Assembly (NCBI GenBank): GCA_963784355.1
Contig: CAWAQU010000005.1
Span: 1 to 52,477, forward strand
Length of the DNA stretch: 52,477 nucleotides
Direction of reading: 5' to 3'
Source: an uncultured bacterium
GTDB lineage: Bacteria > Patescibacteriota > JACMRA01
Positions 17,788 through 33,425 of this stretch are shown one piece after another. Numbering within the stretch: position 1 is the first letter of the stretch; every line of letters starts with the position of its first letter. Below the pieces are notes generated by a model. It was not told where the DNA came from. It ran no database searches and saw nothing but the letters and a program-made list of their open reading frames with translations. Made by a program: the position numbers and the translations under genes.

Positions 17788-17944
17788 TTTGTTTTTATTT
17801 TTGTTACTTTTTTGAATACCTTATGCTTTGAAGACTAGCAAGGAATTTGAATTTCCCCCACTCCGACTTGATTTTTTCTTTAGTGCAAGCTCTTTATTCC
17901 CCATGATTATACTTCACTTTTCTACATTAGTCAAAATAATAAAA

Positions 17945-17971
17945 TTAGCACTTGACAAGTTTGGTTGCTAA
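17945..17971 (+). promoter_or_regulatory. CIRCE element (HrcA operator) upstream of dnaK
   Basis: TTAGCACTT-N9-GGTTGCTAA vs consensus TTAGCACTC-N9-GAGTGCTAA (8/9 and 7/9 matches), ending 46 nt before dnaK. Confidence 0.8.
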
Positions 17972-17980
17972 TGTTAGTAT
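17952..17980 (+). promoter_or_regulatory. sigma70 promoter of dnaK
   Basis: TTGACA-17 nt-TAGTAT with TGn extended -10; the -35 lies inside the CIRCE. Confidence 0.75.
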
Positions 17981-18017
17981 AGGTTTAAATTAATGTGTAA
18001 ATATTAAAATAAATTTT

Positions 18018-19934
18018 ATGTCTATTGTACTTGGAATCGATCTTGGAACCACAAACTCGGCAATGGCCTATGTGGTAGGGGGAAAACCTACAATTATTGA
18101 AAATGCTGAAGGAGCTCGTATTACTCCATCCATCTTTTATTACAATTCTAAAGATAGCTCAGTAGTAATTGGAGAAATTGCAAAAAGAAACAGTGTATTA
18201 AATCCTGAAAATACTTTTTATGAGGTAAAGAGATTTATCGGACGTTCTTTTGATGATGCTGAAGTAAAGAGTGATACTCAAATGCTTCCTTACAAAGTTC
18301 TTGAGAGAAATAGCAAAGTCAAACTTGCTACAAAAGAAGACAAGGAATACTCACCAGAAGAAATCTCCGCTGCTGTTTTGAGAAAATTGAAGACTGATGC
18401 TGAGGCTAAATTGGGTCAGTCAATCACAGAAGCTGTTATTACAGTACCTGCTTATTTTAATGATGCTCAAAGACAAGCTACTAAAGATGCTGGAGAAATA
18501 GCCGGATTGAAAGTGCTCAGAATTATCAATGAACCTACAGCAGCCGCTCTTGCTTATGGATTTGAAAAAGGTAAGGATGAAAAGGTATTGGTATACGATC
18601 TTGGAGGAGGTACATTTGACGTAACTGTTTTAGAAATTTCCAACGAAACTATCGAAGTACTAGCTACCAACGGAGACACTCATTTAGGAGGTAAAGATTT
18701 TGATAGAGCGATCATTGAATATATTATTGCTGAATTCAAAAAAGAAACAGGAATAGATTTAATCAATGATAAAGCAGCAAAGCAACGTATCAAAGAAGCT
18801 GCTGAAAAAGCAAAACATGATCTTTCCACTCAAACTGAACATCAGATCAATCTGCCGTTTATCACTATGGGAGCTGATAATCAGCCACAACATTTATTGC
18901 TCAACATTACTAGAGCTAAACTTGAGGATTTAGTGAGAGAATTGGTCAATCGTTCAATGGAGCCGGTTAAAAAAGCCCTTGCTGATGCAAACTTAGATAA
19001 GACCCAAATCAATGAAATCATCATGGTGGGTGGAATGACCAGAATGCCGCTTGTACAAAAAAGTGTAGAAGAGTTTTTCGGTAAAAAGCCTAATTTATCA
19101 GTTAATCCTGATGAAGTCGTGGCCATGGGTGCAGCAATTCAAGGGGCTGTTTTAAAAGGTGATGTAAAAGATATATTGCTTTTAGATGTGACTCCGCTTA
19201 CTTTAGCTATTGAAACAGCTGGAGGTATTGCTACAGGAATGATCCCAAGAAATACTACTATTCCTACAAGTAAAACTCAAATTTTCTCTACTTTTGCTGA
19301 TAACCAAACAGCAGTAGATGTACATGTAGTACAAGGTGAAAGACCACTTGCCGTAGACAACAAATCTCTTGGTAAATTTACATTATCCGGAATTGCTCCT
19401 GCGCCTCGCGGTATTCCACAAATTGAAGTAACTTTTGATCTTGATGCAAACGGTATTTTGATGGTTACTGCATCAGACAAAGGAACAGGAAAGAAAGCAA
19501 ACATCACAATCACCGGTTCTTCTACATTATCCGAGGATGAAAAACAGAGAGCTATTGAAGAAGCTGAAAGACAGAGGGATGCAGATTTGGCTAAGAAGGC
19601 TAAAATTGACTCCAAAAATAATGCCGATGCAATTATATTCCAAACCGAAAAATTGGTTTCAGATATGGGAGATAAATTAGAATCAGCAGACAAAGAAGAG
19701 CTAAACAAAATAAAAGGAGAACTAGAAGTCTTGGTTAAAAAAGATGATGCAACCAAAGAAGATTTGGAAAGCAAAACTAAGGAATTGCAAGATAAGTTGA
19801 TGAAAATAGGTGAGAAAATTTACTCTGCCTCTTCAGCGTCAGCAAATCCACAACCTGAAAATACTACAGAAACTCCTACAAGTGAGACTAGCACAGGTCC
19901 AGAAGTAGACGTAGATACTACACCAAAAGCTTAG
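18018..19934 (+). CDS. dnaK: Chaperone DnaK (Hsp70)
   Basis: GIDLGTTNS, TVPAYFNDAQRQATKDAG, DLGGGTFD, GIAPAPRGIPQIEVTFD. Confidence 0.99.
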   Translation: MSIVLGIDLGTTNSAMAYVVGGKPTIIENAEGARITPSIFYYNSKDSSVVIGEIAKRNSVLNPENTFYEVKRFIGRSFDDAEVKSDTQMLPYKVLERNSKVKLATKEDKEYSPEEISAAVLRKLKTDAEAKLGQSITEAVITVPAYFNDAQRQATKDAGEIAGLKVLRIINEPTAAALAYGFEKGKDEKVLVYDLGGGTFDVTVLEISNETIEVLATNGDTHLGGKDFDRAIIEYIIAEFKKETGIDLINDKAAKQRIKEAAEKAKHDLSTQTEHQINLPFITMGADNQPQHLLLNITRAKLEDLVRELVNRSMEPVKKALADANLDKTQINEIIMVGGMTRMPLVQKSVEEFFGKKPNLSVNPDEVVAMGAAIQGAVLKGDVKDILLLDVTPLTLAIETAGGIATGMIPRNTTIPTSKTQIFSTFADNQTAVDVHVVQGERPLAVDNKSLGKFTLSGIAPAPRGIPQIEVTFDLDANGILMVTASDKGTGKKANITITGSSTLSEDEKQRAIEEAERQRDADLAKKAKIDSKNNADAIIFQTEKLVSDMGDKLESADKEELNKIKGELEVLVKKDDATKEDLESKTKELQDKLMKIGEKIYSASSASANPQPENTTETPTSETSTGPEVDVDTTPKA

Positions 19935-19964
19935 TACAATAGTTAATTTATATACAATTAATTT

Positions 19965-19989
19965 GCCCTCCATTACGGAGGGTCTTTTG
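19965..19989 (+). terminator. Intrinsic terminator after dnaK
   Basis: GCCCTCC-attac-GGAGGGT hairpin followed by CTTTT. Confidence 0.75.
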
Positions 19990-20077
19990 TTTGCAATAAT
20001 TGAATGCTAGGATTAAGTAAAATTCCCTTGATTATTTGTTGTTTCTTTGCTATATACTTCTATATAACGATATAATT

Positions 20078-20236
20078 ATGCAATTCAATTTTACATTTAC
20101 AGAAGCAGAAGCAAATTTAATTTTACAGGCATTGGGTAAATTGCCAGCTGAGATGACCATGGAATTAATTTTAAAATTACAAACAGAAGCAAAAAAGCAA
20201 ATCGAGGCTTCACAACAAAATCCTCAGCAGGAATAA
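20078..20236 (+). CDS. Small helical hypothetical protein (52 aa)
   Basis: ATG at 20078 after an AT-rich leader; amphipathic MQFNFTFTEAEANLILQALGKLP... sequence. Confidence 0.7.
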   Translation: MQFNFTFTEAEANLILQALGKLPAEMTMELILKLQTEAKKQIEASQQNPQQE

Positions 20237-20281
20237 TTCAAAGTACAAAAAATAATAAGCTAGTAGTATTATAGTATATTG

Positions 20282-21067
20282 CTAGTTCTTTTCTTGTAGT
20301 TTTCTAACAACATTCAAGCCCAGTTTTCTGGGTATAAATTTGCTTGCAAAAGCTAAAAACCTATTTCTAAAACCAGGTATAATCACTAGTTTATTTTTCA
20401 TTAAAGCATCATAACCAGCTTTAGCTACTGACTCTGCAGTAGAATTTCTCATATTAAAAAGTGGTAGATCCGAAACTCCTGCTCGTTTATCAAAATTAGT
20501 TTCAGTAGGGCCGGGACAAAGAGTGGTGACCGACACCCCTGTATTATTTAATTCACTGGCAATTGCAGTACTGAATGAAAGGACAAATGATTTTGTAGCA
20601 TAATAAGTTGCCATAAATGGTCCAGGCTGAAAAGACGCAGTTGAGGCTACGTTGAGAATCTTACCGAATTTTCTATCAACCATTTGAGGTAAAAATAGGT
20701 GGGTAAGCTCCACAAGGCTTGTGATATTAAGTTGTATCTCATTTAGTTCATCTTGAATTGGTAACTTATAAAATGCCCCGGAGGTTGCAAATCCTGCATT
20801 GTTTACTAAAATATCTACAGCCAACCCTTTATTTTTAACCTCCTCAAATATTTCACTAGATCCTTTGGGATCACTAAGATCTTTGGTAATCACAGTAGTA
20901 TTTATATGATATTTTTCACTTAAATCAGCGGCTATTTCATTCAACTTTGCTTCATTTCTGGCAATTAAAATTAAGTTGTAATTATTTTGAGCAAAAACTT
21001 TAGCTAATTCCAACCCAATCCCCCCAGAAGCTCCGGTAATTAGGACATTTTGTAATTTATTATGCAT
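20282..21067 (-). CDS. Short-chain dehydrogenase/reductase (SDR)
   Basis: TGASGGIG, LVNNAG, YxxxK (YYATK). Confidence 0.95.
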   Translation of the reverse strand: MHNKLQNVLITGASGGIGLELAKVFAQNNYNLILIARNEAKLNEIAADLSEKYHINTTVITKDLSDPKGSSEIFEEVKNKGLAVDILVNNAGFATSGAFYKLPIQDELNEIQLNITSLVELTHLFLPQMVDRKFGKILNVASTASFQPGPFMATYYATKSFVLSFSTAIASELNNTGVSVTTLCPGPTETNFDKRAGVSDLPLFNMRNSTAESVAKAGYDALMKNKLVIIPGFRNRFLAFASKFIPRKLGLNVVRKLQEKN

Positions 21068-21291: not shown

Positions 21292-22353
21292 ATGTTTAGA
21301 ACAAATGAAGAGATTAGTAAAAAATATTTTCCTATACTGAAAAAGTTTTTCAGGTACAATAAAACTGCCAAAATTAAACCGGTTGACTTTGATAAACCCT
21401 GGTGGCAGATTATTTGGGACCAAAAATTTGCCTACTTAATGTTTTTATTTGGAGAGTTATTATCAAGCATATTTTTATCTCTAGTCCCTTTAATTATAGG
21501 TTTTATAGTAAACTCTGGGCAATATTATCAGTTTTCCTATCTGATTTTGACTTGGCTTTCAATCATGGTACTGTTGTTTGTAACTAATTATTTTTACATG
21601 GCAGCAATGGCTAGCGTCGAAACGAGCGTGCATTATTATGCAGTTAGATTTTTTCTTACTGTTGATCCGATTTTTCACTCTACGCGCAGTAGTGGACAGG
21701 TAATTTCCAAAATAAACAGGGGCAGTGAGTCATATGAGGCTGTTACTGATTTGTTGACTTCGGAAATATTCAGAATAGTGGTAAAAGTACTTACTTTAGG
21801 TATTACCATAATAACCTTCAATCAAATTTTAGGCTGGTTTAGCTTAATTAGCTCTAGCTTGATAATTATAATTTCCATTGTTTCTAAAATACTGATTACA
21901 CTTGTTACTTCCGCAAGCGGGATTATTGACGGTGATGATTTGAAAGCTACGGATTTGGAAACACTTAGAGAAATATATCTGGTCAGATCAGCGTTTGCTG
22001 GTCCCGAGCAGGACAAAAAAATTAGATTTAAAAGTCACAAATTTATGTCTACTTTGGCTACATACTGGTTTAGTAATACAGTTATAGACTTTGTTGTCAG
22101 AATTATTTATATTCTTACTGTTGCAATTTTCGGATATATTTTATTTGATCTGCTGCAGAATGGAAAAATTGATCTGGTTATTGGTTTGTCTATTATGGTT
22201 TCCTATATAGCAAACTCTAATGATATAATCAGAATAGGTCAGTATTTTGAAAGATTGACTAGCAGAATCATGCAAATCCGGGATATGTTTAAATTCATTA
22301 GGGAATTTGGCAAACAAACTTATCCTGTGTTGGGTGAGAGAGATTTAAAGTAG
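21292..22353 (+). CDS. Stand-alone ABC exporter transmembrane domain (TMD1)
   Basis: About 6 TM; FFLTVDPIFHSTRSSGQVISKINRG resembles the exporter ICL motif; ends FGKQTYPVLG; no NBD. Confidence 0.82.
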   Translation: MFRTNEEISKKYFPILKKFFRYNKTAKIKPVDFDKPWWQIIWDQKFAYLMFLFGELLSSIFLSLVPLIIGFIVNSGQYYQFSYLILTWLSIMVLLFVTNYFYMAAMASVETSVHYYAVRFFLTVDPIFHSTRSSGQVISKINRGSESYEAVTDLLTSEIFRIVVKVLTLGITIITFNQILGWFSLISSSLIIIISIVSKILITLVTSASGIIDGDDLKATDLETLREIYLVRSAFAGPEQDKKIRFKSHKFMSTLATYWFSNTVIDFVVRIIYILTVAIFGYILFDLLQNGKIDLVIGLSIMVSYIANSNDIIRIGQYFERLTSRIMQIRDMFKFIREFGKQTYPVLGERDLK

Positions 22354-22380
22354 ATTTAATACTTGTCACGCTGTCAATCC

Positions 22381-22409
22381 TTGTCAAAACCACAAATATT
22401 TGCTATTGT
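22381..22409 (+). promoter_or_regulatory. Putative sigma70 promoter
   Basis: TTGTCA-17 nt-TATTGT with TGn, 13 nt before ATG 22423. Confidence 0.5.
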
Positions 22410-22422
22410 AAAAGAATCGCAT

Positions 22423-23043
22423 ATGAACTTACCAAAATTTGGGTTAGGGAAATTTGAAACATCTGAAAACCCACGACAATCAGTTGAAAAGCAAAAAGAT
22501 AAAAAATTTACCAAAGATGAAATTAAGGCTTTACGTGCATTTAGAAATTTAGATAAAACGTTAGCTGTTGTAAAAGAAAGGCAAGAAGTCGGAAATTTAA
22601 GTGATCAAGAAACGATTAAAATGTTTGTGGAAGCAATAATTAATGGAAAGAAATTTACCATTTCATATACAGCTCTCGAGGGCTATTTAAACAAATATTT
22701 ATCTTTTGGCTCAAAAGGAGAAGCAAAGCTTTTTAGAGACCAACTTAAATCACGATATGAAGAAAGAGATGTAGAATTGGGTAATGTTGTAGATATTGGC
22801 ATACCGGAAATTCAGGCCAAACTTATAAGACGTGAGCAGGGAAGGGCATTAGAAATTACAGCAGCCCTTACTGCAATAACTATAGCTTTAAGCGTTGGAA
22901 TACAAGCTATTACACCAACAAATAAAATGCAAGCTGAGAAGAAATATAATGAAACAAAAGAGCAACAAACGCATGAAGTGGATTTAAAAACTCCCAACCC
23001 ACATTTTGAACAAAATACTGATCCTAAGCACGAAGTTGACTAG
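22423..23043 (+). CDS. Hypothetical protein with one C-terminal hydrophobic helix
   Basis: ATG at 22423 (MNLPKF); basic N-terminal part; ITAALTAITIALSVGIQAI hydrophobic stretch. Confidence 0.7.
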   Translation: MNLPKFGLGKFETSENPRQSVEKQKDKKFTKDEIKALRAFRNLDKTLAVVKERQEVGNLSDQETIKMFVEAIINGKKFTISYTALEGYLNKYLSFGSKGEAKLFRDQLKSRYEERDVELGNVVDIGIPEIQAKLIRREQGRALEITAALTAITIALSVGIQAITPTNKMQAEKKYNETKEQQTHEVDLKTPNPHFEQNTDPKHEVD

Positions 23044-23072
23044 ATATTTAAAAACATAAAAAGTACTAGTTA

Positions 23073-23834
23073 ATGTCATACTCAGGCTATTCAAACAAAT
23101 GGGCAAATAAGAAAAAAAGTAATAAACATTTTGCTCATCAGTATTTGGAAAAACCTGCTATGTATTCCAAGTTACCTGATTTGAATGGAAAAAAAGTGCT
23201 TTGTATAGGTTGTGGTAGTGGAGAAGAGTGTGGATATCTCAAAAAAGCCGGCGCAAGTTATATACTTGGAATAGACAATTCTGAAGAGTTAATATCAATT
23301 GCAAAAAATAGTTACCCTGATTTGGAATTTCAAAACTTAGATGTACAGGAAATCGACTTTGAAGAAAATTCCTATGACTTTATTTTTTCTAGCCTCACTC
23401 TGCACTATCTTGAGAATTGGCCTGAACTATTTCAGCGTTTAGCAAAAATATTGAAACCTGGCGGCAGACTTTTATTTTCTAGCCACCACCCTGTAAAATG
23501 GGGGTCCGAAACTATCAGAAGTAAAGAATTTAATGAGTTTAAACTTGGCTATAAGAAGTTAAAAGACGGAAGTGATAAGTTTGAAATTTACGGAGACTAT
23601 CTAAATTTTAGACGTATTGAAGATAAATTATTTGGAGAATTGGAGGTAAAATACTATCACCGTAGCTTTTCTCAAATGTACAAAGAAATTACAGAAAATA
23701 GCTTTAAAGTATTGGATATCATTGAGCCAAAACCCACAGAAGAAAGTAAAGGTATCAAATTAGACTTTTACCAAGTGTATTCAAAAATCCCACTTTTTAT
23801 AATCTTCGAGCTGGAGAATACAAAATTAACTTAG
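23073..23834 (+). CDS. Class I SAM-dependent methyltransferase
   Basis: VLCIGCGSG, GIDNS, YDFIFSSLTLHY, LKPGGRL. Confidence 0.93.
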   Translation: MSYSGYSNKWANKKKSNKHFAHQYLEKPAMYSKLPDLNGKKVLCIGCGSGEECGYLKKAGASYILGIDNSEELISIAKNSYPDLEFQNLDVQEIDFEENSYDFIFSSLTLHYLENWPELFQRLAKILKPGGRLLFSSHHPVKWGSETIRSKEFNEFKLGYKKLKDGSDKFEIYGDYLNFRRIEDKLFGELEVKYYHRSFSQMYKEITENSFKVLDIIEPKPTEESKGIKLDFYQVYSKIPLFIIFELENTKLT

Positions 23835-23914
23835 CTATCTGCTTTGAACTAAACAAAAATTCCATTGAGTAAAGCTAATTAATTCCTTAGCTAACTAAAC
23901 ACATCACCAAACCA

Positions 23915-23937
23915 CAAATATATCATAAATGAGATAA
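23915..23937. repeat. 23-bp motif CAAATATATCATAAATGAGATAA, copy 1
   Basis: Exact match to 25009..25031 and 29063..29085; contains imperfect palindrome TATATCAT-AA-ATGAGATA. Confidence 0.9.
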
Positions 23938-23951
23938 ATATTTACAACAAT

Positions 23952-25022
23952 ATGTTCTGGAAAGACGAAAAATTTCAACAAAATTACTACAATTTCTTTT
24001 ACAAGGTTTTAGGCTTTGAGAAAGATACTAAAATATTGCCAGTCAATTTTGAAAAACCCTGGTATCAGATTATTTTAGACCAAAAATGGGCTTTTTCACT
24101 GGAGATTGTCTCGGAAATTATACAGAGTGTATATGGAGCCTTAACGCCTTTAATCCTTAGTAAAGCAATCTTTGATCAAAATGTATGGATAATCATTTAT
24201 TTTGCTTTGGGCTATTTGGTGCTGGAAATTTTAAATAGAATCATACTTCGGGTTCACACTATATTCGTGTTACAAAGCAGATTTAGTATAGCTTTTGCGG
24301 CTTACAAGTTTTTTCTTACTGTAGATCCGATTTTCCATACCACCAAATCTAGTGGTCAAATAACCAGTAAAATTCAATCAACTATGAATGATTTGGGTGA
24401 TTTGTTAAATCAATTGGTATCTAATATATTACCTGTAATTGTAGGTTTTACCACAGTAATTATCACAATAGGTAGTTACAACCGATATTTAGCTTTAATT
24501 GGTATTGTATCTTTTATACTAATTTCTGTAGTAAATGGAGGGCTTAATTATATTAACTCACTTATATTCAGCAAAAGGGTTATAAAAATGCGCGATAAAG
24601 CACTATCTGTAACCGTAGAAAATCTTCACCAAAACCAATTGATTAGGTCTGTATTTGCCGTAAACGAACAAGTTGGTAGAACTAGAGATGTACTAAAAAA
24701 ATTTATGGTAACCAGGGGTACTTCAGTGTTGAGTCATGGAATTGCCACCTCAATTACTAGAGTATTGTATATTAGCTCTGTTTTAATTCTTTCACTAACA
24801 ATTTTCAATTTGATAAAGTCAGGTAGTATGGAACAAAATCTAGGCCTAACTCTAATAATTACTTATGTAAACGGGTCTAGCCAAATACTTAGATTAGGCC
24901 AAACTATTAAAGATTTTGTAGAAAAATACACTAGTGTAACGGATCTATTCGAGTTTATACGAAGTTTCGGTAAGCAGTCCTACCCAGTACTAGAAGGAGA
25001 CGAAATTTCAAATATATCATAA
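23952..25022 (+). CDS. Stand-alone ABC exporter transmembrane domain (TMD2)
   Basis: FEKPWYQIILDQK, FFLTVDPIFHTTKSSG, FGKQSYPVLEG; no NBD. Confidence 0.82.
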   Translation: MFWKDEKFQQNYYNFFYKVLGFEKDTKILPVNFEKPWYQIILDQKWAFSLEIVSEIIQSVYGALTPLILSKAIFDQNVWIIIYFALGYLVLEILNRIILRVHTIFVLQSRFSIAFAAYKFFLTVDPIFHTTKSSGQITSKIQSTMNDLGDLLNQLVSNILPVIVGFTTVIITIGSYNRYLALIGIVSFILISVVNGGLNYINSLIFSKRVIKMRDKALSVTVENLHQNQLIRSVFAVNEQVGRTRDVLKKFMVTRGTSVLSHGIATSITRVLYISSVLILSLTIFNLIKSGSMEQNLGLTLIITYVNGSSQILRLGQTIKDFVEKYTSVTDLFEFIRSFGKQSYPVLEGDEISNIS

Positions 25023-25031
25023 ATGAGATAA
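25009..25031. repeat. 23-bp motif, copy 2
   Basis: Overlaps the TMD2 stop codon; ends 10 nt before the TMD3 ATG. Confidence 0.9.
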
Positions 25032-25041
25032 AAAATTCAGT

Positions 25042-26094
25042 ATGTCTGCCGTAAATAAATCCAAATTTAGTGAACAGTTTTTTGCTCAGGTAGTTAAAGT
25101 ATTTAAGTACAACAAAAGAATGAAATTGGTTGAGATTGATTTCTCAAAACCTTGGTGGGATTTATTGGTCCAGCAAAAGAGGCTAGTGTTTATCAATATT
25201 TTGAATCAATTATTTGGTAATGTGATTTTAGCTTTAGCTCCGGTTGCAGTTGCTTATGCTATTGAAAGACAAGATGTAAAATTATTTTTATTGATCATTT
25301 TGGTCATAGCTTTGTCACGGCTTTTAGCTCATATAATGTATTATTTTGACCCAATTTTGAGGATTCAGAGTAGTCAAAGTATTACCTACAGTGCAAACAA
25401 ATTTTTCCTTACCACGGATCCTATAAATCACAGCAACCGTAGCAGTGGAGAGATTATTAGCAAGATAAATAGAGCATCGACTGGTATTGAAAGCCTGCTG
25501 GGATTAGTCACTCTGGAGTTTTTAAGTCTGGGTTTTACAATAATAAGTACAGTATGGATTTTTTGGAATTTTAATTATATTTATGGATTGGTAGTTTTGG
25601 GTAGCCTAAGTTTTATAATATTTTTTAATATCATTTGTTTTTACTACAGGAGTAAGATACAAAAAATTATAATTAAATATGAAGATAAAGCCCAGACTAT
25701 CAATGTAGAAACTCTCCAGCAAACTCATTATATTAGGTCAGGATTTGCCACCCCCGAGCAAGCTGGAAAAATGTTTAGTGCCAACACAAAACGAATGTAT
25801 TTAGAAGCAAGCAGTTGGAGGCTTGCCGGATATATTATCAGCACAACCCAATTTTTATTTTTCATCAGTTTGGCAATTTTAGGTTATCTGATAATCACAA
25901 ATAAGGATGTGAATGTAGTAATTGCTGCATCTTTGTTGGTCAGCTACTTCAATATTGGCAATCAAATCTATTTCATCGGATATTCTGTAAATCAATTAAT
26001 AAAACACTATATTGGGATAACAGATCTTTATAGCTTCATCAGAAATTTTGGTAAACAAACTTATCCTGTACTTGAGGGGGATAATGCTAGTTAA
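25042..26094 (+). CDS. Stand-alone ABC exporter transmembrane domain (TMD3)
   Basis: FSKPWWDLLVQQK, FFLTTDPINHSNRSSG, FGKQTYPVLEG; no NBD. Confidence 0.82.
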   Translation: MSAVNKSKFSEQFFAQVVKVFKYNKRMKLVEIDFSKPWWDLLVQQKRLVFINILNQLFGNVILALAPVAVAYAIERQDVKLFLLIILVIALSRLLAHIMYYFDPILRIQSSQSITYSANKFFLTTDPINHSNRSSGEIISKINRASTGIESLLGLVTLEFLSLGFTIISTVWIFWNFNYIYGLVVLGSLSFIIFFNIICFYYRSKIQKIIIKYEDKAQTINVETLQQTHYIRSGFATPEQAGKMFSANTKRMYLEASSWRLAGYIISTTQFLFFISLAILGYLIITNKDVNVVIAASLLVSYFNIGNQIYFIGYSVNQLIKHYIGITDLYSFIRNFGKQTYPVLEGDNAS

Positions 26095-26173
26095 ACTCAG
26101 CTTAAGCTGTTCTTGACAATAGCCAAAAAGTATGGATCCAATATAAGTGGCGTTTATATTACATGAAAAAATC

Positions 26174-26776
26174 ATGAAGCCATTGATAGCAGAGTTCATT
26201 GGCAGCTTTTTGTTGGTGTTTTGCGGCCCTGTGACAGGAATTCTGTCGGGAGAGCAATTAGCAGTTTCACTGGTATTTGGCATTGTATTAAAAATACTTG
26301 CCGAGACATTAGGATCATATTCCGGGGGTAATTTTAATCCCTGGGTTACGCTAGGAACGGTAATGAATGGTAGTTTCAACCAAGGAGAAAAACTAGTTCC
26401 GGGTTACCTGTTAGTTCAATTTTTAGGTGGAATGCTTGCAGCCTCATTCATCTGGATATTATTTCCAGGTCAATTAGAAAAAGCCGCTACCTTACCATCT
26501 GTAAGTTACGGTTTTTGGTCTGTACTTTGGGTTGAATTCCTAATCACACTAGTACTACTTTTTAGTATTCTGCAAACAACAAGCACTACTGTAATTGGAG
26601 GGGCACTTTTTCTTGGAGTCTTTATTGGGTTTAAGGTATCGGGTGGATCATTGAACCTTGTTAGAACCTTACCGTTTATGATTCTTCTTGGAAATTTTAA
26701 CGGTTTTTGGGCCTACTTTTTCGGCCAATTTCTAGCCACGCTTGTGGCAGTAGGTATCACAAAACTTCTAAAATAA
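26174..26776 (+). CDS. MIP/aquaporin family channel with non-canonical NPA motifs
   Basis: AEFIGSF start, SGGNFNPWVT, VEFLIT, SGGSLNLVR, FWAYFFGQF. ATG at 26174 preferred over GTG at 26147. Confidence 0.88.
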   Translation: MKPLIAEFIGSFLLVFCGPVTGILSGEQLAVSLVFGIVLKILAETLGSYSGGNFNPWVTLGTVMNGSFNQGEKLVPGYLLVQFLGGMLAASFIWILFPGQLEKAATLPSVSYGFWSVLWVEFLITLVLLFSILQTTSTTVIGGALFLGVFIGFKVSGGSLNLVRTLPFMILLGNFNGFWAYFFGQFLATLVAVGITKLLK

Positions 26777-26805
26777 TTCGCTATCAATGAATAGCCATTA
26801 ATTAC

Positions 26806-26846
26806 AAGCATCTTGGCCGCATATGTTGTGTCGAGATGCTTTTTTC
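26806..26846 (+). terminator. Intrinsic terminator after the MIP gene
   Basis: AAGCATCTTGGC...GTCGAGATGCTT stem followed by a T tract. Confidence 0.7.
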
Positions 26847-26899
26847 TTAATTTTTATATAATTTCAACTTAACAAAAACTTAATCAATATAGTGAATTT

Positions 26900-27667
26900 A
26901 TGTTTACAGAACAACTTAAAAATAATAATCAGTATAAGCGTCTAGTAGGAGCAGCTTTAACTTGTCTAGCAAGCTTTTCAATTGCTGGCTGCAAGGCTCC
27001 ACAAATGCCTGTACAACAACTAGATAGTCCCCAAGTCAAGCAACAACTCGTTCAAAATAAACAAGATAGAATCGAACAGGCTCAGGAGGCAGTTAAAAGG
27101 CTGCAGCAGGAAAAAGAATCTTTAAAAAGACAATCACAATTTTCAACTGGAATTAACATAATCGACAAGTTCAAAAATAAGGTTATTGATGTTCGATCAC
27201 CATTTACCCAAAAAGCTTTAGTGAAAAAACAGCAGGAAATTCCAAAATTACAGTCAGAGCTTGAACAAATTAAAGTTAATTCATCCACTAGGAATAATCC
27301 CCAACAAACTGTTCAAAAAGGAATTGAAAAGACTAAACAAGTGGTTGGTAATGTTGTTAATAAAATCCCCGTAATATCCAATAATAAAAATCCTGATATG
27401 AAAGCTCAGCTTACTAGATTAAGTCAAGCTATAGAAAAGATAGGAAAAACCCCGGTAATTCTACCAATTGTAGGGCAAAAAGAGATTAATGGTAAAATAA
27501 TTAAATTTGTTTCTTTTAATGAAAATTCTAAAGTAAGATTATTTACTCTTCAGCATGCAGTAGACAATAATTTTATTCATGGTTCTGAAGCTCAAGTTAA
27601 AGCATTATGGCAAAATGGAAATTTAAGAATAAACAGCCAAGGTAGTGTTGAATTTGTTGCAAAATAA
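26900..27667 (+). CDS. Putative lipoprotein/secreted coiled-coil protein
   Basis: Hydrophobic stretch ending IAGC (lipobox-like), then Q/K-rich coiled coil. Confidence 0.65.
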   Translation: MFTEQLKNNNQYKRLVGAALTCLASFSIAGCKAPQMPVQQLDSPQVKQQLVQNKQDRIEQAQEAVKRLQQEKESLKRQSQFSTGINIIDKFKNKVIDVRSPFTQKALVKKQQEIPKLQSELEQIKVNSSTRNNPQQTVQKGIEKTKQVVGNVVNKIPVISNNKNPDMKAQLTRLSQAIEKIGKTPVILPIVGQKEINGKIIKFVSFNENSKVRLFTLQHAVDNNFIHGSEAQVKALWQNGNLRINSQGSVEFVAK

Positions 27668-27695
27668 TTAAATCAAATCCTGTAGTATTAATTTT

Positions 27696-27718
27696 AGCCG
27701 GGTTTGTCCCGGTTTTTT
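27696..27718 (+). terminator. Intrinsic terminator
   Basis: AGCCGGG-tttgt-CCCGGTT hairpin plus TTTT. Confidence 0.75.
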
Positions 27719-27787
27719 ACATTGGAAATATGCATTTTGCTCAAAGGCTAATAAAGATGTTTTTCTTCTTATAAGGCTCACAAAGTA

Positions 27788-27816
27788 TTGACAAAAGCAG
27801 CAATTCATGCTACTAT
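27788..27816 (+). promoter_or_regulatory. Strong sigma70 promoter upstream of TMD4-NBD
   Basis: TTGACA-17 nt-TACTAT with TGn extended -10. Confidence 0.7.
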
Positions 27817-28005
27817 AGACACAATTTAATCATTCACTTACAAGACACTCCTTAAATAGATTCTCATGTCTCTTCTAATCTACACTAGATAACTCAACTT
27901 TTTTGTACCTCCATAATTTGATATCTTAATCTAGTATTTTGATACTCCACAATCCTTGAAAAGGACAATTTCCCTGCTTTTTACAACTTAATTACATAAT
28001 TATTT

Positions 28006-29076
28006 ATGACTATGAACCTCGAGAAAATACGAGATACCTATTTTAATTTTTGGGTGAAAATCTCAAACTACAAATCCAAAATGAAACTGTTAGAAGTTGA
28101 CTTCAATAAACCCTGGTGGGATATAATTTGGAGACAAAAAACTATACTTATATCTATATGGACCATTCAAATGCTAAATGATATAAGTTGGATTATACTA
28201 CCTATTGTTTTAGCTTGGGTAATTAATGATTTAAATTACTTATACCTTGCGTATTTTATTTTGTTTAAAATTGCATTGTTGTGGTTGTCACAATTACAAT
28301 GGTATATAAATGCTATATTGCAGCTTCAATCAGTGAGAAGTGTATATTTCCAAGCCCACAAATTTTTCTTAACTGTAGATCCTATTTATCACTCTACTAA
28401 AAATAGCGGTAAGATTTTAGCCAAGACTGAGAGAGGTTCTAGAGGCTATGAAGATTTATTGGATATTCTGACTTTTGAAATAATCCCAATCATTATAGGT
28501 ATTGTATCAATTTTTGTATCAATGCTTTTCTATAATACCAGGCTTGCATTTTTAACTATAGGATTAATTTTGCTAATGGTAATTTTAAATATTGCAATCA
28601 CGATTTTCCATGCAAATGCTTTTGAGCAAAAAGTTATAGATTTAGACGATTCAGCTAAAAATTCTGCAGTAGAAAATCTATCCCAGGCAAATTTAATTAG
28701 ATCTGCTTTTGCTACAACTCAGCAATTGGATATATTTCAAAAGAAAAACCTAAATTTGATTGTCAAAGAAGGGAGTGGTTGGAATGCTCAGGGTATAAGT
28801 TTCAACTTTGTGATCTCAATCTACTTTCTAAGTGTATTATTGATTGGATATTATGTCATAAACAATATACAAAATGGAACTATAAATTCAACTACAGGTT
28901 TAGCTCTTTTGAGCACTTATTTAATTGGTACAAACAGTCTTTTAAGTGTAGGTGGTAAAGTTAGGCGATTTATGAAAGTTTATACCGAAATCACGGATTT
29001 ATACAGCTTTATCAGAACTTTTGGTAAACAAACTTATCCAGTTCTCGAGGGGGATAAAATCACAAATATATCATAA
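28006..29076 (+). CDS. Stand-alone ABC exporter transmembrane domain (TMD4)
   Basis: FNKPWWDIIWRQK, FFLTVDPIYHSTKNSG, FGKQTYPVLEG; no NBD. Confidence 0.82.
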   Translation: MTMNLEKIRDTYFNFWVKISNYKSKMKLLEVDFNKPWWDIIWRQKTILISIWTIQMLNDISWIILPIVLAWVINDLNYLYLAYFILFKIALLWLSQLQWYINAILQLQSVRSVYFQAHKFFLTVDPIYHSTKNSGKILAKTERGSRGYEDLLDILTFEIIPIIIGIVSIFVSMLFYNTRLAFLTIGLILLMVILNIAITIFHANAFEQKVIDLDDSAKNSAVENLSQANLIRSAFATTQQLDIFQKKNLNLIVKEGSGWNAQGISFNFVISIYFLSVLLIGYYVINNIQNGTINSTTGLALLSTYLIGTNSLLSVGGKVRRFMKVYTEITDLYSFIRTFGKQTYPVLEGDKITNIS

Positions 29077-29085
29077 ATGAGATAA
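29063..29085. repeat. 23-bp motif, copy 3
   Basis: Overlaps the TMD4 stop codon; identity with copy 1 extends to 25 bp. Confidence 0.9.
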
Positions 29086-29186
29086 TTACTTTATGAATTA
29101 ACAACAAATTTTCAACACAATTTACATTCAAAACTACAAACAATTTACAAAATATAAAATTTAATTAATAACTAACACAACATAAT

Positions 29187-30008
29187 ATGTCCGATTTTAC
29201 TTTACGTGCTACCAATTTGCACTTTGATTACAACAACAAAACACAAATCTTTGAGGGTCACTCTTTATCTCTGGAAGCAGCAGAGTCTCAAAAAAATAAA
29301 CTCTACGGAATTATTGGTCCATCTGGTACAGGTAAAACCACACTTTTATCAATTCTTGGAGGGCAGTTAAAGCCTACTTCGGGTGATATTTTGATCAATG
29401 ATACCAATATTTACAAAGTAACTGATTTGGTTAGAAGAGAATTAATTGCCATGCAGATGCAGACAGCTACTAGTCTAAGAGGCAAATTGAAACAAAATCT
29501 AATATTCGGTTTACCGCAATCCTGGTCTTTGGATGATGAAGATAATACCTCTAAAGAAAATGAAATTTATACTGATGAGTATTTGGTTGAAATTTTGCAA
29601 AGGGTAGGGCTCTGGAATCTGTTTAAAGACAAAGATGGCCTTGATACCCTGATTGGTGAAGGTGGTTTAAACTTATCTGGAGGTCAAAGACAGAGATTGA
29701 ATTTTGCTGGGTTGTACTTAAGAGCTAAGCATTTCAAACCAAAATTGATTTTAATTGATGAGCCAACCAGTAGTCTAGATGAGTTGAGTGAGCAGGCAAT
29801 TACACAAATGATTGACGAGCTGGCAAGTAGCGCTCTGACTTTGGTTGTAGCTCACAGATTAAAAACTTTAGATACTAGCGTAGGAATTTTAGACTCTTCA
29901 TTAATCGATAATGAAAAAGAGATGAAATTTTACACTAGAGACGAGCTATTAAAAGCCTCTCAGTACTATCAGGATTTGATGGCCGGAAAAGCTCAGCTTG
30001 AGGATTAA
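29187..30008 (+). CDS. Stand-alone ABC ATPase of exporter (ABCB/C-like) type
   Basis: GPSGTGKT, GLDTLIGEGGLNLSGGQRQR (exporter X-loop plus signature), ILIDEPTSSLD, VAHRL. Confidence 0.93.
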   Translation: MSDFTLRATNLHFDYNNKTQIFEGHSLSLEAAESQKNKLYGIIGPSGTGKTTLLSILGGQLKPTSGDILINDTNIYKVTDLVRRELIAMQMQTATSLRGKLKQNLIFGLPQSWSLDDEDNTSKENEIYTDEYLVEILQRVGLWNLFKDKDGLDTLIGEGGLNLSGGQRQRLNFAGLYLRAKHFKPKLILIDEPTSSLDELSEQAITQMIDELASSALTLVVAHRLKTLDTSVGILDSSLIDNEKEMKFYTRDELLKASQYYQDLMAGKAQLED

Positions 30009-30040: not shown

Positions 30041-31177
30041 ATGAATTTAAGGAAAGATTTAGTAATAAAATTGCATAATTGGCGGATTTTTAAAGAGTCA
30101 AAATTTGCTTTACCTCGCGATTCTTTTGTAATTATAGACACAAATGGTAGCGGCAAAACTTCTTTAATTTCCGCTTTTTATACTCTATTTACCGGACGAA
30201 GCTGGCCTGGTACTAAATTCATGCAAAATCTTAGGGTAGGGGAAGGTTATTTAGGCCTATCGACTGAATACTCAGAATGGGCTTTGACCGGGCAAATCTC
30301 TCCAAGCGGGCGATTGAGTACAAAATATCTAAAACTACCCGAGGATTGCTATCAGGAGGCTCTTGAGTCAAATTTAGAGGCTGTCCAATGGCCAAAAGTA
30401 CTGACATATTTACCTACCGACAACTATTGGTTTAATCAATCGAGAACGGCAAAATTGGATATTTTAAATAATTTACTGAATCAGGTAATTGGCCAAAGAT
30501 ATTATGAAGCTCTTGATAACCTAAATAAATCAGTCACAGGAAAGCAAAAACTAATCAAACATGTGCTTGAGAACGAGCTTAATGCGGATAATGTCATGTT
30601 GACTACTTTAAATGCTGAGATCTTGGCTCATAGTATCAAAGTTTGGGAGCTTAGAAAAGATTTCTTTGAGTTTATTAATCAAAACTTAGCTAATTTTACT
30701 GAGTGGGTAGACAGCCCTTTAAAAAACTGGAAAATAAACTGGGAAGTTACCAACAAATTTGGAAATAAAGACAAATTGCAAGTTAACTCTTTTAATTTTA
30801 ATCATATTTCTCAGGCAGACCTAGATAATTTGTGGCAAAGAGAGCTGGCAAGTGCAAAGGTCCTATTTGGAGCTCAAAGAGACGATTTTTGGATAGACTC
30901 AGATCATTTAAAACTTGAAGAATCTTTATCGAGGGGCGAGATGCGAATTTTTATACTGTATTTTAAAAACCTGGCAAAGCAGTATTCCCGAAAATTACAC
31001 CCTGAAATACCTATATTTTGGTTGCTAGATGATGTATTTAACGAACTTGATGATTACCGTGAAGAGATACTTATAAAAGAGTTTTTAGAGTCTACTGATT
31101 ATTTTATCGCGACAACTACTAAATCTCCGATTTTTAAGATTAAAACCAGGTCATTGAAAGACTTGACAATTAGCTAA
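30041..31177 (+). CDS. recF: RecF-like DNA repair ATPase (divergent)
   Basis: LHNWRIF, NGSGKTSLI, GAQRDDF, SLSRGEMR, LLDDVFNELD. Confidence 0.85.
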   Translation: MNLRKDLVIKLHNWRIFKESKFALPRDSFVIIDTNGSGKTSLISAFYTLFTGRSWPGTKFMQNLRVGEGYLGLSTEYSEWALTGQISPSGRLSTKYLKLPEDCYQEALESNLEAVQWPKVLTYLPTDNYWFNQSRTAKLDILNNLLNQVIGQRYYEALDNLNKSVTGKQKLIKHVLENELNADNVMLTTLNAEILAHSIKVWELRKDFFEFINQNLANFTEWVDSPLKNWKINWEVTNKFGNKDKLQVNSFNFNHISQADLDNLWQRELASAKVLFGAQRDDFWIDSDHLKLEESLSRGEMRIFILYFKNLAKQYSRKLHPEIPIFWLLDDVFNELDDYREEILIKEFLESTDYFIATTTKSPIFKIKTRSLKDLTIS

Positions 31178-31280
31178 AAATGAAGGTTTAAACTTAAGTC
31201 ATCAAAACTAAAACATACAAATTAAGTTCTAAAGAAACTGTTGATTTTGGTATGTTAAGAGATAGCTCAATTATTTTGTT

Positions 31281-32324
31281 ATGCCCAGAACTCCAAAAAA
31301 TACCTCAAAACCAAAAACTCAAATAGTGACTGCTGAGGAGCCGCCAAAACTGAAAAAAAGAAGCAATACTATAAGACCTAGAAAAAGAAGTTTTAAGAAA
31401 GAAGTACCCACTGTGCCCGTGGTTCAGCCTGTGGTTAGCCAAGAAATGATTGAGCAAAATCAAGAAAATAACTCCCCAACAGTTCAGACTAACGTAGAAG
31501 TAAAAGCTAGAGTTATTGCAAGAATTAGTGAAAAAGATAAAGAGTCTAGAACAAATTTAATAAAACAAGCCAGACCTATAATTCAAGTGAGGAATTTAGT
31601 TAAAAGATATAACAATTTTGTTGCTGTAAATGACATTTCTTTTGAGGTTAAAAAAGGCGAGATATTCGGTATTTTAGGGCCAAATGGGGCAGGGAAGACT
31701 ACTACTTTAGAAATTATTGAAACTTTAATTAAAAAAACTTCCGGGCAAATTTTTGTAGACGGATTAAGCATTGATCTTTACCCTGATTTAATCAAACAAA
31801 TGATTGGGATTCAGCTGCAAGATAGTGGGTTTTACCCTAGAATTAACCTAATCGAAACTTTAGAACTGTATGCAGATATTTATAATGTAAATACAAATGC
31901 TGAAGAGCTTTTAAAAAGTGTAAATTTATTAGAAAAAGCAAAAAATACTCCTGAACAACTTAGCGGGGGACAGAGGCAGAGATTTAATATAGCCATAACT
32001 TTAGTCTCAGATCCTAGTCTAATATTTTTAGATGAGCCTACGACAGGGCTAGATCCTCAAGCCAGAAGAAATTTATGGGAAATGGTTAAAGCTTTGAAAA
32101 ATAAAGGCAAGACAATTATTTTGACTACTCATTATATGGATGAGGCTGAAATACTTTGTGATCGTATCGCAATCATGGATGGTGGAAAAATATTGGAGAT
32201 CAATACATCTGAAGGATTTATCAAAGACCTTTTATCAAGAGGATTTGTGCGTCCTGAGCCAAAACTTGGTGCCACTCTTGAGGATGTTTTCATAGATCTA
32301 ACAGGTAAAAAAATAAGAGAATAA
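31281..32324 (+). CDS. ABC-2/drug-exporter family ATP-binding protein with ~100-aa N-terminal extension
   Basis: GPNGAGKT, LSGGQRQR, FLDEPTTGLDPQARR, TTHYMDEAE, TLEDVFIDLTG. Confidence 0.93.
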   Translation: MPRTPKNTSKPKTQIVTAEEPPKLKKRSNTIRPRKRSFKKEVPTVPVVQPVVSQEMIEQNQENNSPTVQTNVEVKARVIARISEKDKESRTNLIKQARPIIQVRNLVKRYNNFVAVNDISFEVKKGEIFGILGPNGAGKTTTLEIIETLIKKTSGQIFVDGLSIDLYPDLIKQMIGIQLQDSGFYPRINLIETLELYADIYNVNTNAEELLKSVNLLEKAKNTPEQLSGGQRQRFNIAITLVSDPSLIFLDEPTTGLDPQARRNLWEMVKALKNKGKTIILTTHYMDEAEILCDRIAIMDGGKILEINTSEGFIKDLLSRGFVRPEPKLGATLEDVFIDLTGKKIRE

Positions 32325-32336
32325 ACTAATTAATTT

Positions 32337-33425
32337 ATGAGCAAAAAACTATCACATTCAGTATTTAGACAATTTTGGGGTTTCTTTGTAGCAGCCTTTA
32401 AGTCCACATTTAGAAATCCTTCTGCCGTGTTTTTTGGATTTTTCTTTCCTTTAATTTTTATTTTCTCTTTTGCCTTTTTTGATAGTGGAAGTGTAAATTT
32501 TGATTTGGGCTTTATTCCAAGTAATAGTAAAGAATATGACATATTTAAAAATGCAGTTGAGAGTAGCAAGGTTTTTAAAGTAGAGGAAGGGGGTAGAGAC
32601 AACCTAAATAGAAAATTAGAACGTGCTTCGATTGATGCTATTGTGGAAGTAAATAAAAATAGAATTATTGTAACTACAAACAACAGTAAACCACAAAATA
32701 ATCCTATAATTTTACAGTACCTTAGTACAATTGTAGATAAAGTTAGTCTAGGAGATAAAGAACCTATTTACAATATTGAGGAAAGAGGGATATCCGGAAG
32801 AACGGGGAAATATATTGATTTTGTTTTGCCTGGGGTATTGGGTTTTTCCTTGCTTACAGCTGCCATTTCAGCCACTAGTTTTAGCTTTGTTAGTTTAAAA
32901 AATACTAAAGCTTTAAAGAGATTATTCGCTACTCCTGCTAAATCAGGTCCTTTTATTTTAGGTCAAACCCTGGCTAGGCTGATTTTTAGCTTAATCCAAA
33001 ATGTTATTTTACTTGTTGTGGCGATCGGACTTTTCAATTATCAACCTAGAGGTGGGTTTCTTAGTGTGTTGCAGATGATTTTAGTGATAATTGTTGGGCT
33101 AATTGCCTTTTTGGGTATGGGATATATTGTGGCTGGTATTTCCAAAAATGAAGATCAGGTAGCCCCAATTACAAATGTACTCACATTGCCGCAGTTTCTA
33201 CTTGCAGGAACTTTTTTTCCTGTATCAAACCTGCCAGGGTGGTTACAAAGCATAGCTAAAGTATTGCCGCTTTATAATTTTAACGAAGCTATGAGATCAA
33301 TTAGTTTAGACGGTCTTTCTATAAATCATCCGGATGTGGCTATCCAATTAGCTTATTTGGGAATATGGATTGTGGTTATTTATTTTATTGCTTCAAAAGT
33401 ATTCAGTGTAAAACTAAATGATTAA
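32337..33425 (+). CDS. ABC-2 type permease
   Basis: YIDFVLPGVLG, LKRLFATP, LAGTFFPVSNLPGWLQ; adjacent to the ATPase gene. Confidence 0.92.
   Translation: MSKKLSHSVFRQFWGFFVAAFKSTFRNPSAVFFGFFFPLIFIFSFAFFDSGSVNFDLGFIPSNSKEYDIFKNAVESSKVFKVEEGGRDNLNRKLERASIDAIVEVNKNRIIVTTNNSKPQNNPIILQYLSTIVDKVSLGDKEPIYNIEERGISGRTGKYIDFVLPGVLGFSLLTAAISATSFSFVSLKNTKALKRLFATPAKSGPFILGQTLARLIFSLIQNVILLVVAIGLFNYQPRGGFLSVLQMILVIIVGLIAFLGMGYIVAGISKNEDQVAPITNVLTLPQFLLAGTFFPVSNLPGWLQSIAKVLPLYNFNEAMRSISLDGLSINHPDVAIQLAYLGIWIVVIYFIASKVFSVKLND

Follow-up and report, generated by a model that had tools for sequence, protein, structure and literature searches.

Membrane-domain-only paralogs of a type IV ABC exporter family accompanied by a single free nucleotide-binding domain gene in an uncultured Patescibacteriota bacterium

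The closest structurally solved relatives of the system reported here are the type IV ATP-binding cassette (ABC) exporters Atm1, ABCB7, ABCB6, NaAtm1 and MsbA, all of which carry a six-helix transmembrane domain (TMD) and a nucleotide-binding domain (NBD) fused in one polypeptide. To our knowledge, type IV exporters are essentially always such fusions. We identified four TMD-only genes and one free NBD gene of this class in the genome of an uncultured bacterium of the Patescibacteriota (assembly GCA_963784355.1, here G000), between positions 21292 and 30008 of a 52,477-nt stretch of contig CAWAQU010000005.1 (the window). The split arrangement is real, conserved among relatives and moderately surprising. 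We consider it probable that these genes encode a naturally split type IV ABC transporter that arose by one fission within the interdomain linker and duplication of the TMD gene alone, with the single NBD serving several TMDs.

Among importers, one ATPase is shared by several membrane partners in the group II energy-coupling factor (ECF) transporters and the MsiK-type sugar importers. The literature describes the same for FhuC of S. aureus and for the Mce systems, with MceG. These importers have other TMD folds (types I–III or Mce), whereas the window genes have the type IV exporter fold, and the likeness is an analogy in which sharing in the window is deduced from gene counts alone. SbmA is described in PMC13316013 as a type IV-like membrane domain without an NBD that is driven by the proton gradient. 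The type IV systems tabulated in a survey of B. subtilis (PMC11466899) are one-protein homodimers or two-protein heterodimers, with no separate NBD subunit. A figure legend in a review (PMC10094684) allows for prokaryotic exporters with separate TMD and NBD, and type IV is not mentioned in that legend. A full-text literature search, which covered neither subscription journals nor supplements, returned no paper on type IV exporters split in this way, with several TMD-only genes and one NBD, and none on an NBD shared among exporters. Within that coverage, the suggestion of the initial annotation that the architecture is undescribed holds. Much mechanistic work on type IV exporters assumes a covalent TMD-NBD link, and a lineage in which the link is naturally cut would matter.

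The region 21292-30008 contains nine genes on the + strand: the four TMD genes, the NBD gene and four intervening genes. The five transporter genes are the following, where ICL1 is the first intracellular loop and the tail is the conserved stretch near the C-terminus of each TMD.

21292..22353, + strand: TMD1, predicted type IV ABC exporter membrane-domain-only paralog, 353 amino acids (aa), stop TAG, family profile 552 bits; in the motif scan, F-x-K-P-W at 21388-21402, ICL1 motif at 21649-21696, tail at 22282-22332
23952..25022, + strand: TMD2, paralog, 356 aa, stop TAA; tail at 24942-24992; Pfam ABC_membrane 23.1 bits (cut-off 28)
25042..26094, + strand: TMD3, paralog, 350 aa, stop TAA; tail at 26023-26073; Pfam ABC_membrane 28.9 bits (cut-off 28)
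28006..29076, + strand: TMD4, paralog, 356 aa, stop TAA; tail at 28996-29046; Pfam ABC_membrane 30.7 bits
29187..30008, + strand: free NBD (ATPase), 273 aa; Pfam ABC_tran 3.5e-21; all catalytic motifs intact

TMD3 starts 19 nt after the end of TMD2, and the NBD gene lies 110 nt downstream of TMD4. The open reading frame (ORF) list agrees exactly with the four genes of about 350 aa and one NBD gene of the initial annotation, and the three motifs it had noted are present in all four TMDs: F-x-K-P-W at residues 33-34, FFLT(V/T)DPI-x-H...SG at residues 120-136, and the tail D(L/M)(F/Y)xFIRxFGKQ(T/S)YPVL at residues 331-347 (328-344 in TMD3). The four proteins align end to end, with 31-32% identity to TMD1 and 49 invariant columns. 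A profile of the four scores its own members at 536-561 bits, compared with 39.9 bits for the next best ORF in the 1.14-Mb genome, a distant TMD. The membrane segments have diverged relative to the cytoplasmic parts, as first noted: identity is 0.19-0.30 in the membrane halves, 0.39 in the N-terminus, 0.45 in ICL1 and 0.53 in the tail, which is the most conserved stretch among the paralogs (12 of its 30 columns are invariant). Each of the five reading frames is closed by TAA or TAG, extra stops follow downstream, and the split is therefore independent of how TGA is read.

Model and fold search support the proposal that the TMD genes encode intact type IV exporter membrane domains, and none of the four has an NBD. 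The AlphaFold2 (AF2) model of TMD4, built with 121 homologs, has a predicted local distance difference test (pLDDT) score of 92.7 and a predicted TM-score (pTM) of 0.84, and contains six long helices (residues 45-75, 78-123, 134-176, 178-226, 237-289 and 295-338). The best Foldseek matches of this model in the Protein Data Bank (PDB) are Atm1, Rv1273c/72c, MsbA, ABCB6, McjD and PCAT1, all with probability 1.00, and the TM-score normalised to the query is at most 0.76, for Atm1 with AMP-PNP. Searched against PDB sequences, the TMD profile finds ABCB6, Atm1 and NaAtm1 best (E of about 1e-6 to 1e-7). The alignment includes the ICL1 region (...H-x-x-R-x-x-G-x...RG) and the helix after transmembrane helix 6 (TM6); it spans ICL1 through '...itDlysfiR', which is paired with the post-TM6 helix of ABCB6. 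The shared motifs are thus standard elements of the fold in a form particular to this family: F-x-K-P-W precedes TM1, in the N-terminal region, FFLTVDPI-x-H...SG...K lies in the TM2-ICL1-TM3 region, and the first half of the tail is the helix following TM6.

Only two of the four TMDs reach the cut-off of 28 for Pfam ABC_membrane (PF00664). Of the others, one scores 23.1 bits and one, TMD1, has no Pfam match at E<=0.01, yet TMD1 aligns over its full length with the other three. No NCBIfam model, and no named exporter model, matches any of the four. A natural lineage of this kind would point to an annotation blind spot, in which NCBIfam names none of the TMDs and the Pfam threshold is reached by two. 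Membership of the Atm1/ABCB7/ABCB6/HMT1 group was considered and rejected, as the similarity has E of about 5e-7 to 6e-5 over part of the TMD, with 14-16% identity and no NCBIfam match. Atm1 and ABCB6 are the nearest solved relatives of the window TMDs, which are not members of their group. Across the fused exporters Atm1, ABCB7, ABCB6, NaAtm1 and MsbA, identity to the window TMDs is 14-17% with E of about 1e-6 to 1e-3. With only 14-17% identity in fold alignments, the substrates of Atm1, ABCB6 and MsbA cannot be transferred to this family. The organisation of TMD and NBD in a single polypeptide, which is typical of type IV and not defining for it, is absent from the five genes described here.

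The free NBD carries Walker A (GPSGTGKTT), TLIGEGG followed by LSGGQ, Walker B (LILIDE) and AHRL. The presence of TLIGEGG before LSGGQ, which we take to be the X-loop by its consensus, is in keeping with the assignment of this protein to the X-loop-type exporter NBDs in the initial annotation. The NCBIfam models that this protein matches best are those of CydD, CydC, LssB-type and MsbA-type exporters, in their NBD parts (E 3e-39 to 7e-34), and it falls below the full-length cut-offs of these models because the TMD part is absent. In 113 free NBDs, Walker A, Q92, LSGGQ, D191-E192 and H223 are invariant. Within G000 the NBD scores 587.8 bits against itself and the next best NBD scores 94.6 bits; each of the other exporter-type NBDs of this genome either shares a polypeptide with its TMD or is a member of a second split pair, described below. 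Neither a second NBD of the matching subfamily nor another free exporter-type TMD lacking its own NBD, as an alternative partner, was found in G000 (1.14 Mb, 13 contigs, about 81% complete). The free NBDs of relatives are 62-73% identical, and the identity of the window TMDs to rows of other genomes in the tree reaches 37-44% at most.

Fused members of the same subfamily are found outside this lineage. A search of 1.84 billion proteins with the TMD profile gave 186 representatives at E<=1e-30, and the pooled family of 197 proteins consists of 122 of TMD-only length, 47 fused proteins (>=540 aa), 26 fragments and 2 others. At least 121 TMD-only and at least 112 free-NBD protein clusters from metagenomes share the split. 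Among 34 species-representative loci (given L numbers here), 23 encode a single TMD-NBD ORF, 9 have the two domains split, and the other 2 are truncated by the end of a contig. The titles of the fused loci name Dependentiae, Babeliales, TM6, Vermiphilus and Chlamydiae, and some name Pseudomonadota or Myxococcales. The fused members are half-transporters of about 620 aa (range about 600-650) that share F-x-K-P-W, the motif of ICL1 and the FGKQT(F/Y)PVL tail with the window TMDs, and their NBDs score 245-340 bits against the window NBD. They differ in being one polypeptide with a linker of about 19 residues, where the window has separate genes and four TMD paralogs. Each of the five fused-lineage genomes searched holds a single fused copy; one metagenome-assembled genome (MAG) has two, on separate contigs (L027 and L028).

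The comparison of split and fused proteins locates the break. In the fused proteins the tail is kept (FGKRSFPVL, FGKQTFPVL and similar), followed by the linker and a window-like NBD. From PVL to the position matching NBD residue 8 there are a median of 19 residues in the fused proteins (interquartile range 16-21, n=46). In the split TMDs, the stretch beyond PVL has a median length of 7 residues (n=121), and in the free NBDs 7 residues precede the position matching residue 8 (n=113). Column conservation in the tail is nearly the same in the split (n=121) and fused (n=46) sets: 0.95 and 0.93 at D331, 0.98 and 0.93 at G340, 0.95 and 0.96 at P345, and 0.93 in both at V346, with F339 conserved at 0.89 in the 46 fused proteins. 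Because the fused proteins keep the tail and the break falls after it, the tail is ancestral and the cut lies in the variable linker. As judged from sequence comparison, the tail appears to be an ancestral feature of the family, consisting of the post-TM6 helix and a family-specific loop, rather than a docking device invented after the split.

The initial annotation had proposed such a device: a docking peptide, FGKQTYPVL, that evolved to replace the covalent linker and lets one ATPase drive up to ten homo- or heterodimeric pores. The rank of the tail as the best-conserved part of the paralogs is in its favour, as is the presence of a single NBD per genome against several TMDs. Constraint on the tail is also slightly tighter in the split set, with an entropy ratio to the whole protein of 0.46 against 0.60 in the fused set; however, ICL1 (0.47 against 0.62) and the N-terminal motif (0.51 against 0.61) shift similarly. 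In the AF2 model of TMD4 alone, the chain is coil after residue 338 with pLDDT 50-60, which is what one would expect if this segment required a partner. In a model of a fused homolog (P0010 with 45 others) the tail has pLDDT 76, compared with 60 in the TMD-only model, and the linker 52, and the tail is still coil. A complex prediction for the NBD and the TMD4 tail (residues 317-356) scored 0.01 against a mark of 0.32, was run without controls, and counts neither way. Against the proposal, the tail predates the split, being conserved equally in 46 fused homologs; its first half aligns with the post-TM6 helix of fused ABCB6; the break is downstream of it, and linker remnants remain on both sides in the split proteins, so that nothing has been replaced. 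In addition, relatives with a single TMD (G007, G012, G016, G018 and G022) work without combinatorics. The idea that proteins with this tail might normally be fused, which the annotation had raised as an objection to itself, proved partly true, as 47 of the 197 family proteins are fused and 122 are of TMD-only length. We consider a docking peptide that replaces the linker unlikely, and favour instead a split transporter whose cut fell in the linker beyond an older tail.

We surveyed G000 and 40 relatives for both components, with thresholds of E<=1e-40 for the NBD subfamily and E<=1e-30 for the TMD, fragments being counted. TMD matches occur in 15 genomes, namely 13 of 24 from the same family, 1 of 1 from another family of the order and none of 15 from other families of the phylum; the class of G000 has 27 genomes in the collection, including these 15. 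The subfamily NBD occurs in 12 genomes of 9 genera, exactly once in each. The single matching NBD of G000 thus has its counterpart in every genome in which the NBD was found. The count of TMDs per NBD across genomes, which the annotation had suggested as a check, gives one NBD against 1 to about 6 TMDs in these 12 genomes. The TMD matches number 4 in G000, all in the window, 5 in G002 and G019, 3 in G001 and G021, 2 in G004, and 1 in each of G007, G012, G016, G022 and G018, the last a single-contig genome with one NBD. G025 has 8, of which four are fragments at contig ends. At locus L008, four TMD genes and then the NBD form an unbroken row; L012 has three TMDs and the NBD, and L018 the NBD and two TMDs. 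The NBD adjoins a TMD gene in the window, L005, L008, L011 and L018. The split loci partly coincide in coordinates with the matches in relatives, and the two surveys are therefore not independent.

In the tree of 50 NBD rows, of which 23 are fused, 26 are free and one is the outgroup, a single change separates fused from split, and the fused clade has a Shimodaira-Hasegawa-like approximate likelihood ratio test (SH-aLRT) support of 84. The TMD tree (45 rows) contains two groups of interest. One holds TMD3 and TMD4 with genes of L017, L018 and L014, and TMD3 is sister to the L017 TMD at 98. The other holds TMD1 and TMD2 with genes of L005, L008, L011, L012, L013 and L021 and the fused row L004. 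TMD2 falls in a clade (99) with rows of L011, L012, L008 and L013, and the TMD rows of the one-TMD genomes G007 and G022 are in the same ortholog group. Since paralog groups have orthologs in other genomes, the TMD duplications are older than these genera. Constraining the 20 split TMDs to one clade costs 4.4 log-likelihood units (approximately unbiased test, p-AU 0.40), and a single split event is therefore not rejected. The outgroup is the second split exporter of G000, with branches of 6-10 substitutions per site, too long for rooting. We infer the direction, fission, because the remaining type IV class is fused. One gene fission in the variable linker, followed by duplication of the TMD gene alone, is the likely course.

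The proposed mechanism is as follows. In the lineage of the window, a small class of bacteria with small genomes, the ancestral gene would have been cut once, between the end of ...FGKQTYPVL and the first beta strand of the NBD, and afterwards only the TMD gene would have been duplicated. A functional transporter would consist of two TMD chains and two copies of the single NBD protein (1258 residues in all), assembled non-covalently through the usual coupling helices, as in the fused relatives. The NBD interface would be formed by ICL1 (...DPI-x-H...SG...K) and ICL2 (E-x-L-x-Q...IRS-x-FA), which are the most conserved parts of the paralogs, and the conserved tail may contribute to TMD-NBD assembly. 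As both NBDs would be the same protein with intact motifs, both ATP sites would be consensus sites. Gene counts suggest that one ATPase is common to all the TMD paralogs. The paralogs probably handle different substrates, because their membrane helices have diverged to 19-30% identity. Homodimers must be viable, since relatives with one TMD and one NBD exist, and TMD heterodimers are possible. If this mechanism is correct, the coupling-helix interface would be sufficient for assembly, the family would be a naturally occurring set of TMDs and NBDs to combine in vitro, and a reduced genome could gain new transport specificities at a cost of about 1 kb each rather than about 1.9 kb.

Several points weigh against this reading. 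The pattern of conserved cytoplasmic loops and diverged membrane helices is common to ABC exporter families in general and does not prove sharing. The base of the TMD tree is poorly resolved, with 18 of 42 inner branches open, and the free TMD tree has two changes between fused and split after removal of the outgroup and of L001, a contig-end artefact. When the NBD tree includes the outgroup, whose branch is very long, the fused NBDs come to lie within the split ones, and fusion from a split ancestor is a possible alternative direction. At about 81% completeness, G000 could hold a further NBD in unassembled DNA. Three relatives, G008, G010 and G015 (88, 93 and 78% complete), have TMD genes and no NBD match. 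Stop codons lie inside some TMD matches (G010:C66, G021:C60 and some in G019 and G001); these may be pseudogenes or overruns of the gene boundary, and the copy numbers are approximate.

An extension of the proposed mechanism is that the paralogs act as exchangeable modules on a common NBD dimer, as both homo- and heterodimers, forming a type IV counterpart of the group II ECF transporters, and that they perhaps import host-derived compounds. Exporter-fold importers are known (YbtPQ, IrtAB and Rv1819c). Host-compound uptake might apply here because the family is confined to lineages with titles that name host-dependent groups, namely Dependentiae/Babeliales, a Chlamydiae-labelled MAG and the Patescibacteria-like class of the window. 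We regard this extension as speculative and rather improbable.

It is also conceivable that the TMD-only proteins are ATPase-independent secondary transporters like SbmA/BacA, with the free NBD serving another role. Relatives of the type IV fold that consist of a TMD only and use the proton gradient exist, SbmA among them (PMC13316013), and three relatives with TMD genes have no NBD match. However, these three genomes are incomplete, and the window NBD is a direct homolog of the NBD that is fused to the same TMD family in other phyla. The two genes adjoin at five loci, the window included, conservation in the TMDs is highest in the loops that face the NBD, and G000 holds no alternative free exporter-type TMD for the NBD. 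SbmA/BacA, the SbmA-like peptide transporters (SLiPT), have a type IV-like TMD encoded without an NBD, whereas the window TMDs have a cognate free NBD beside them. We therefore consider secondary transport very unlikely. Membership of the SbmA/BacA-like group itself was examined and rejected, as there is no Pfam match to SbmA_BacA or ABC_membrane_2 and both the cluster and the relatives contain a cognate NBD.

That the split is an artefact of decay, assembly or annotation, with a fused gene broken and the extra TMDs pseudogenes, is hardly credible: small symbiont-like genomes are rich in broken genes, some TMD matches of relatives contain stop codons and a second exporter family of G000 is likewise split, but the four window TMDs are full length with every family-invariant residue kept, the break point is identical in 12 genomes of 9 genera, the split recurs in at least 121 TMD-only and at least 112 free-NBD metagenome clusters, the paralog groups have orthologs across genomes and the free NBDs keep their catalytic residues. 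The initial annotation had already excluded decay from the clean gene ends, and the TAA and TAG stops and the conservation of the split in related genomes bear this out.

The four genes that lie between the transporter genes are the following.

22363..23834, + strand: two genes between TMD1 and TMD2, encoding a 226-aa hypothetical protein and a 253-aa class I S-adenosylmethionine methyltransferase
26147..27667, + strand: two genes between TMD3 and TMD4, encoding a 209-aa MIP/aquaporin-family channel (Pfam MIP 1.5e-23) and a 255-aa hypothetical protein

The Pfam matches of the first pair are DUF6657, which is weak (0.0056), and Methyltransf_11 (6e-22). Genes of these types were not found beside TMD genes in other split loci, and the pair is probably unrelated to the transporter. 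The gene types of the second pair likewise show no conserved association with the TMD/NBD family at other loci. Across the 9 split loci, with 13 neighbouring ORFs searched against Pfam, there is no recurrent neighbour that hints at a substrate.

Downstream of the NBD in the window (30041-33425) are a RecF-like gene (AAA_29/SMC_N), an ABC-2 ATPase and an ABC-2 permease. At L012, from the same genus, the NBD is followed in the same order (17019-20323) by a RecF-like ORF, identified by Pfam scan, an ABC ATPase-like ORF and a third ORF of similar size, and a DUF3137 protein, not a TMD, lies directly upstream of the NBD. Among the 9 split loci, this RecF-like gene and, putatively, the ABC-2 pair downstream of the NBD form the only neighbourhood feature that recurs, and it is common to the window and L012.

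At 25000-25031 and 29054-29085, TMD2 and TMD4 agree in their last codons (...AAATATATCATAA) and in the 9 nt that follow the stop (ATGAGATAA), and NIS is the C-terminus of each protein. The two genes belong to different groups of the TMD tree despite these common 3' ends, which suggests gene conversion or a common 3' element.

TGA terminates only 45 of 665 long ORFs in G000. The TMD gene of a relative (G002, L014) contains an in-frame TGA and is full length only under translation table 25, and one related record is titled candidate division SR1. The record titles of L005, L011 and L013 name Saccharibacteria, Bdellovibrionales and SR1; their free NBDs group with other free NBDs, outside the fused clade, and their TMD and NBD coordinates coincide with matches in genomes placed in the family of the window itself. 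Some of these title labels look unreliable.

Elsewhere in the window, a 2277-aa ORF (10954-17787, - strand) contains a stretch of about 200 aa twice, identical in translation. The corresponding direct DNA repeat is 100% identical, as reported over 300 nt (13049-13348 and 14477-14776), and may have arisen by a very recent duplication within the gene or by an error of assembly.

The second split type IV exporter of G000 is unrelated to the first and lies on contig C12 (L035:2189-3911, - strand). Its 331-aa TMD ends right after the post-TM6 helix, and its 241-aa NBD begins 1 nt later in another frame and has ISLGQ in place of the LSGGQ signature. Two genes away, a fused 580-aa exporter (L035:5059-6801, - strand) has D-D where D-E is usual after Walker B, and Q for the H-switch histidine. 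The motifs of these proteins suggest that the split pair and the 580-aa exporter could form a heterodimer with one degenerate site. Across the class, TMDs of the L035 type occur as ORFs of 319-365 aa in 11 genomes and of 528-636 aa in 6. Because this exporter is also split in relatives, the lineage shows that type IV exporters have been split here more than once and have stably kept the split.

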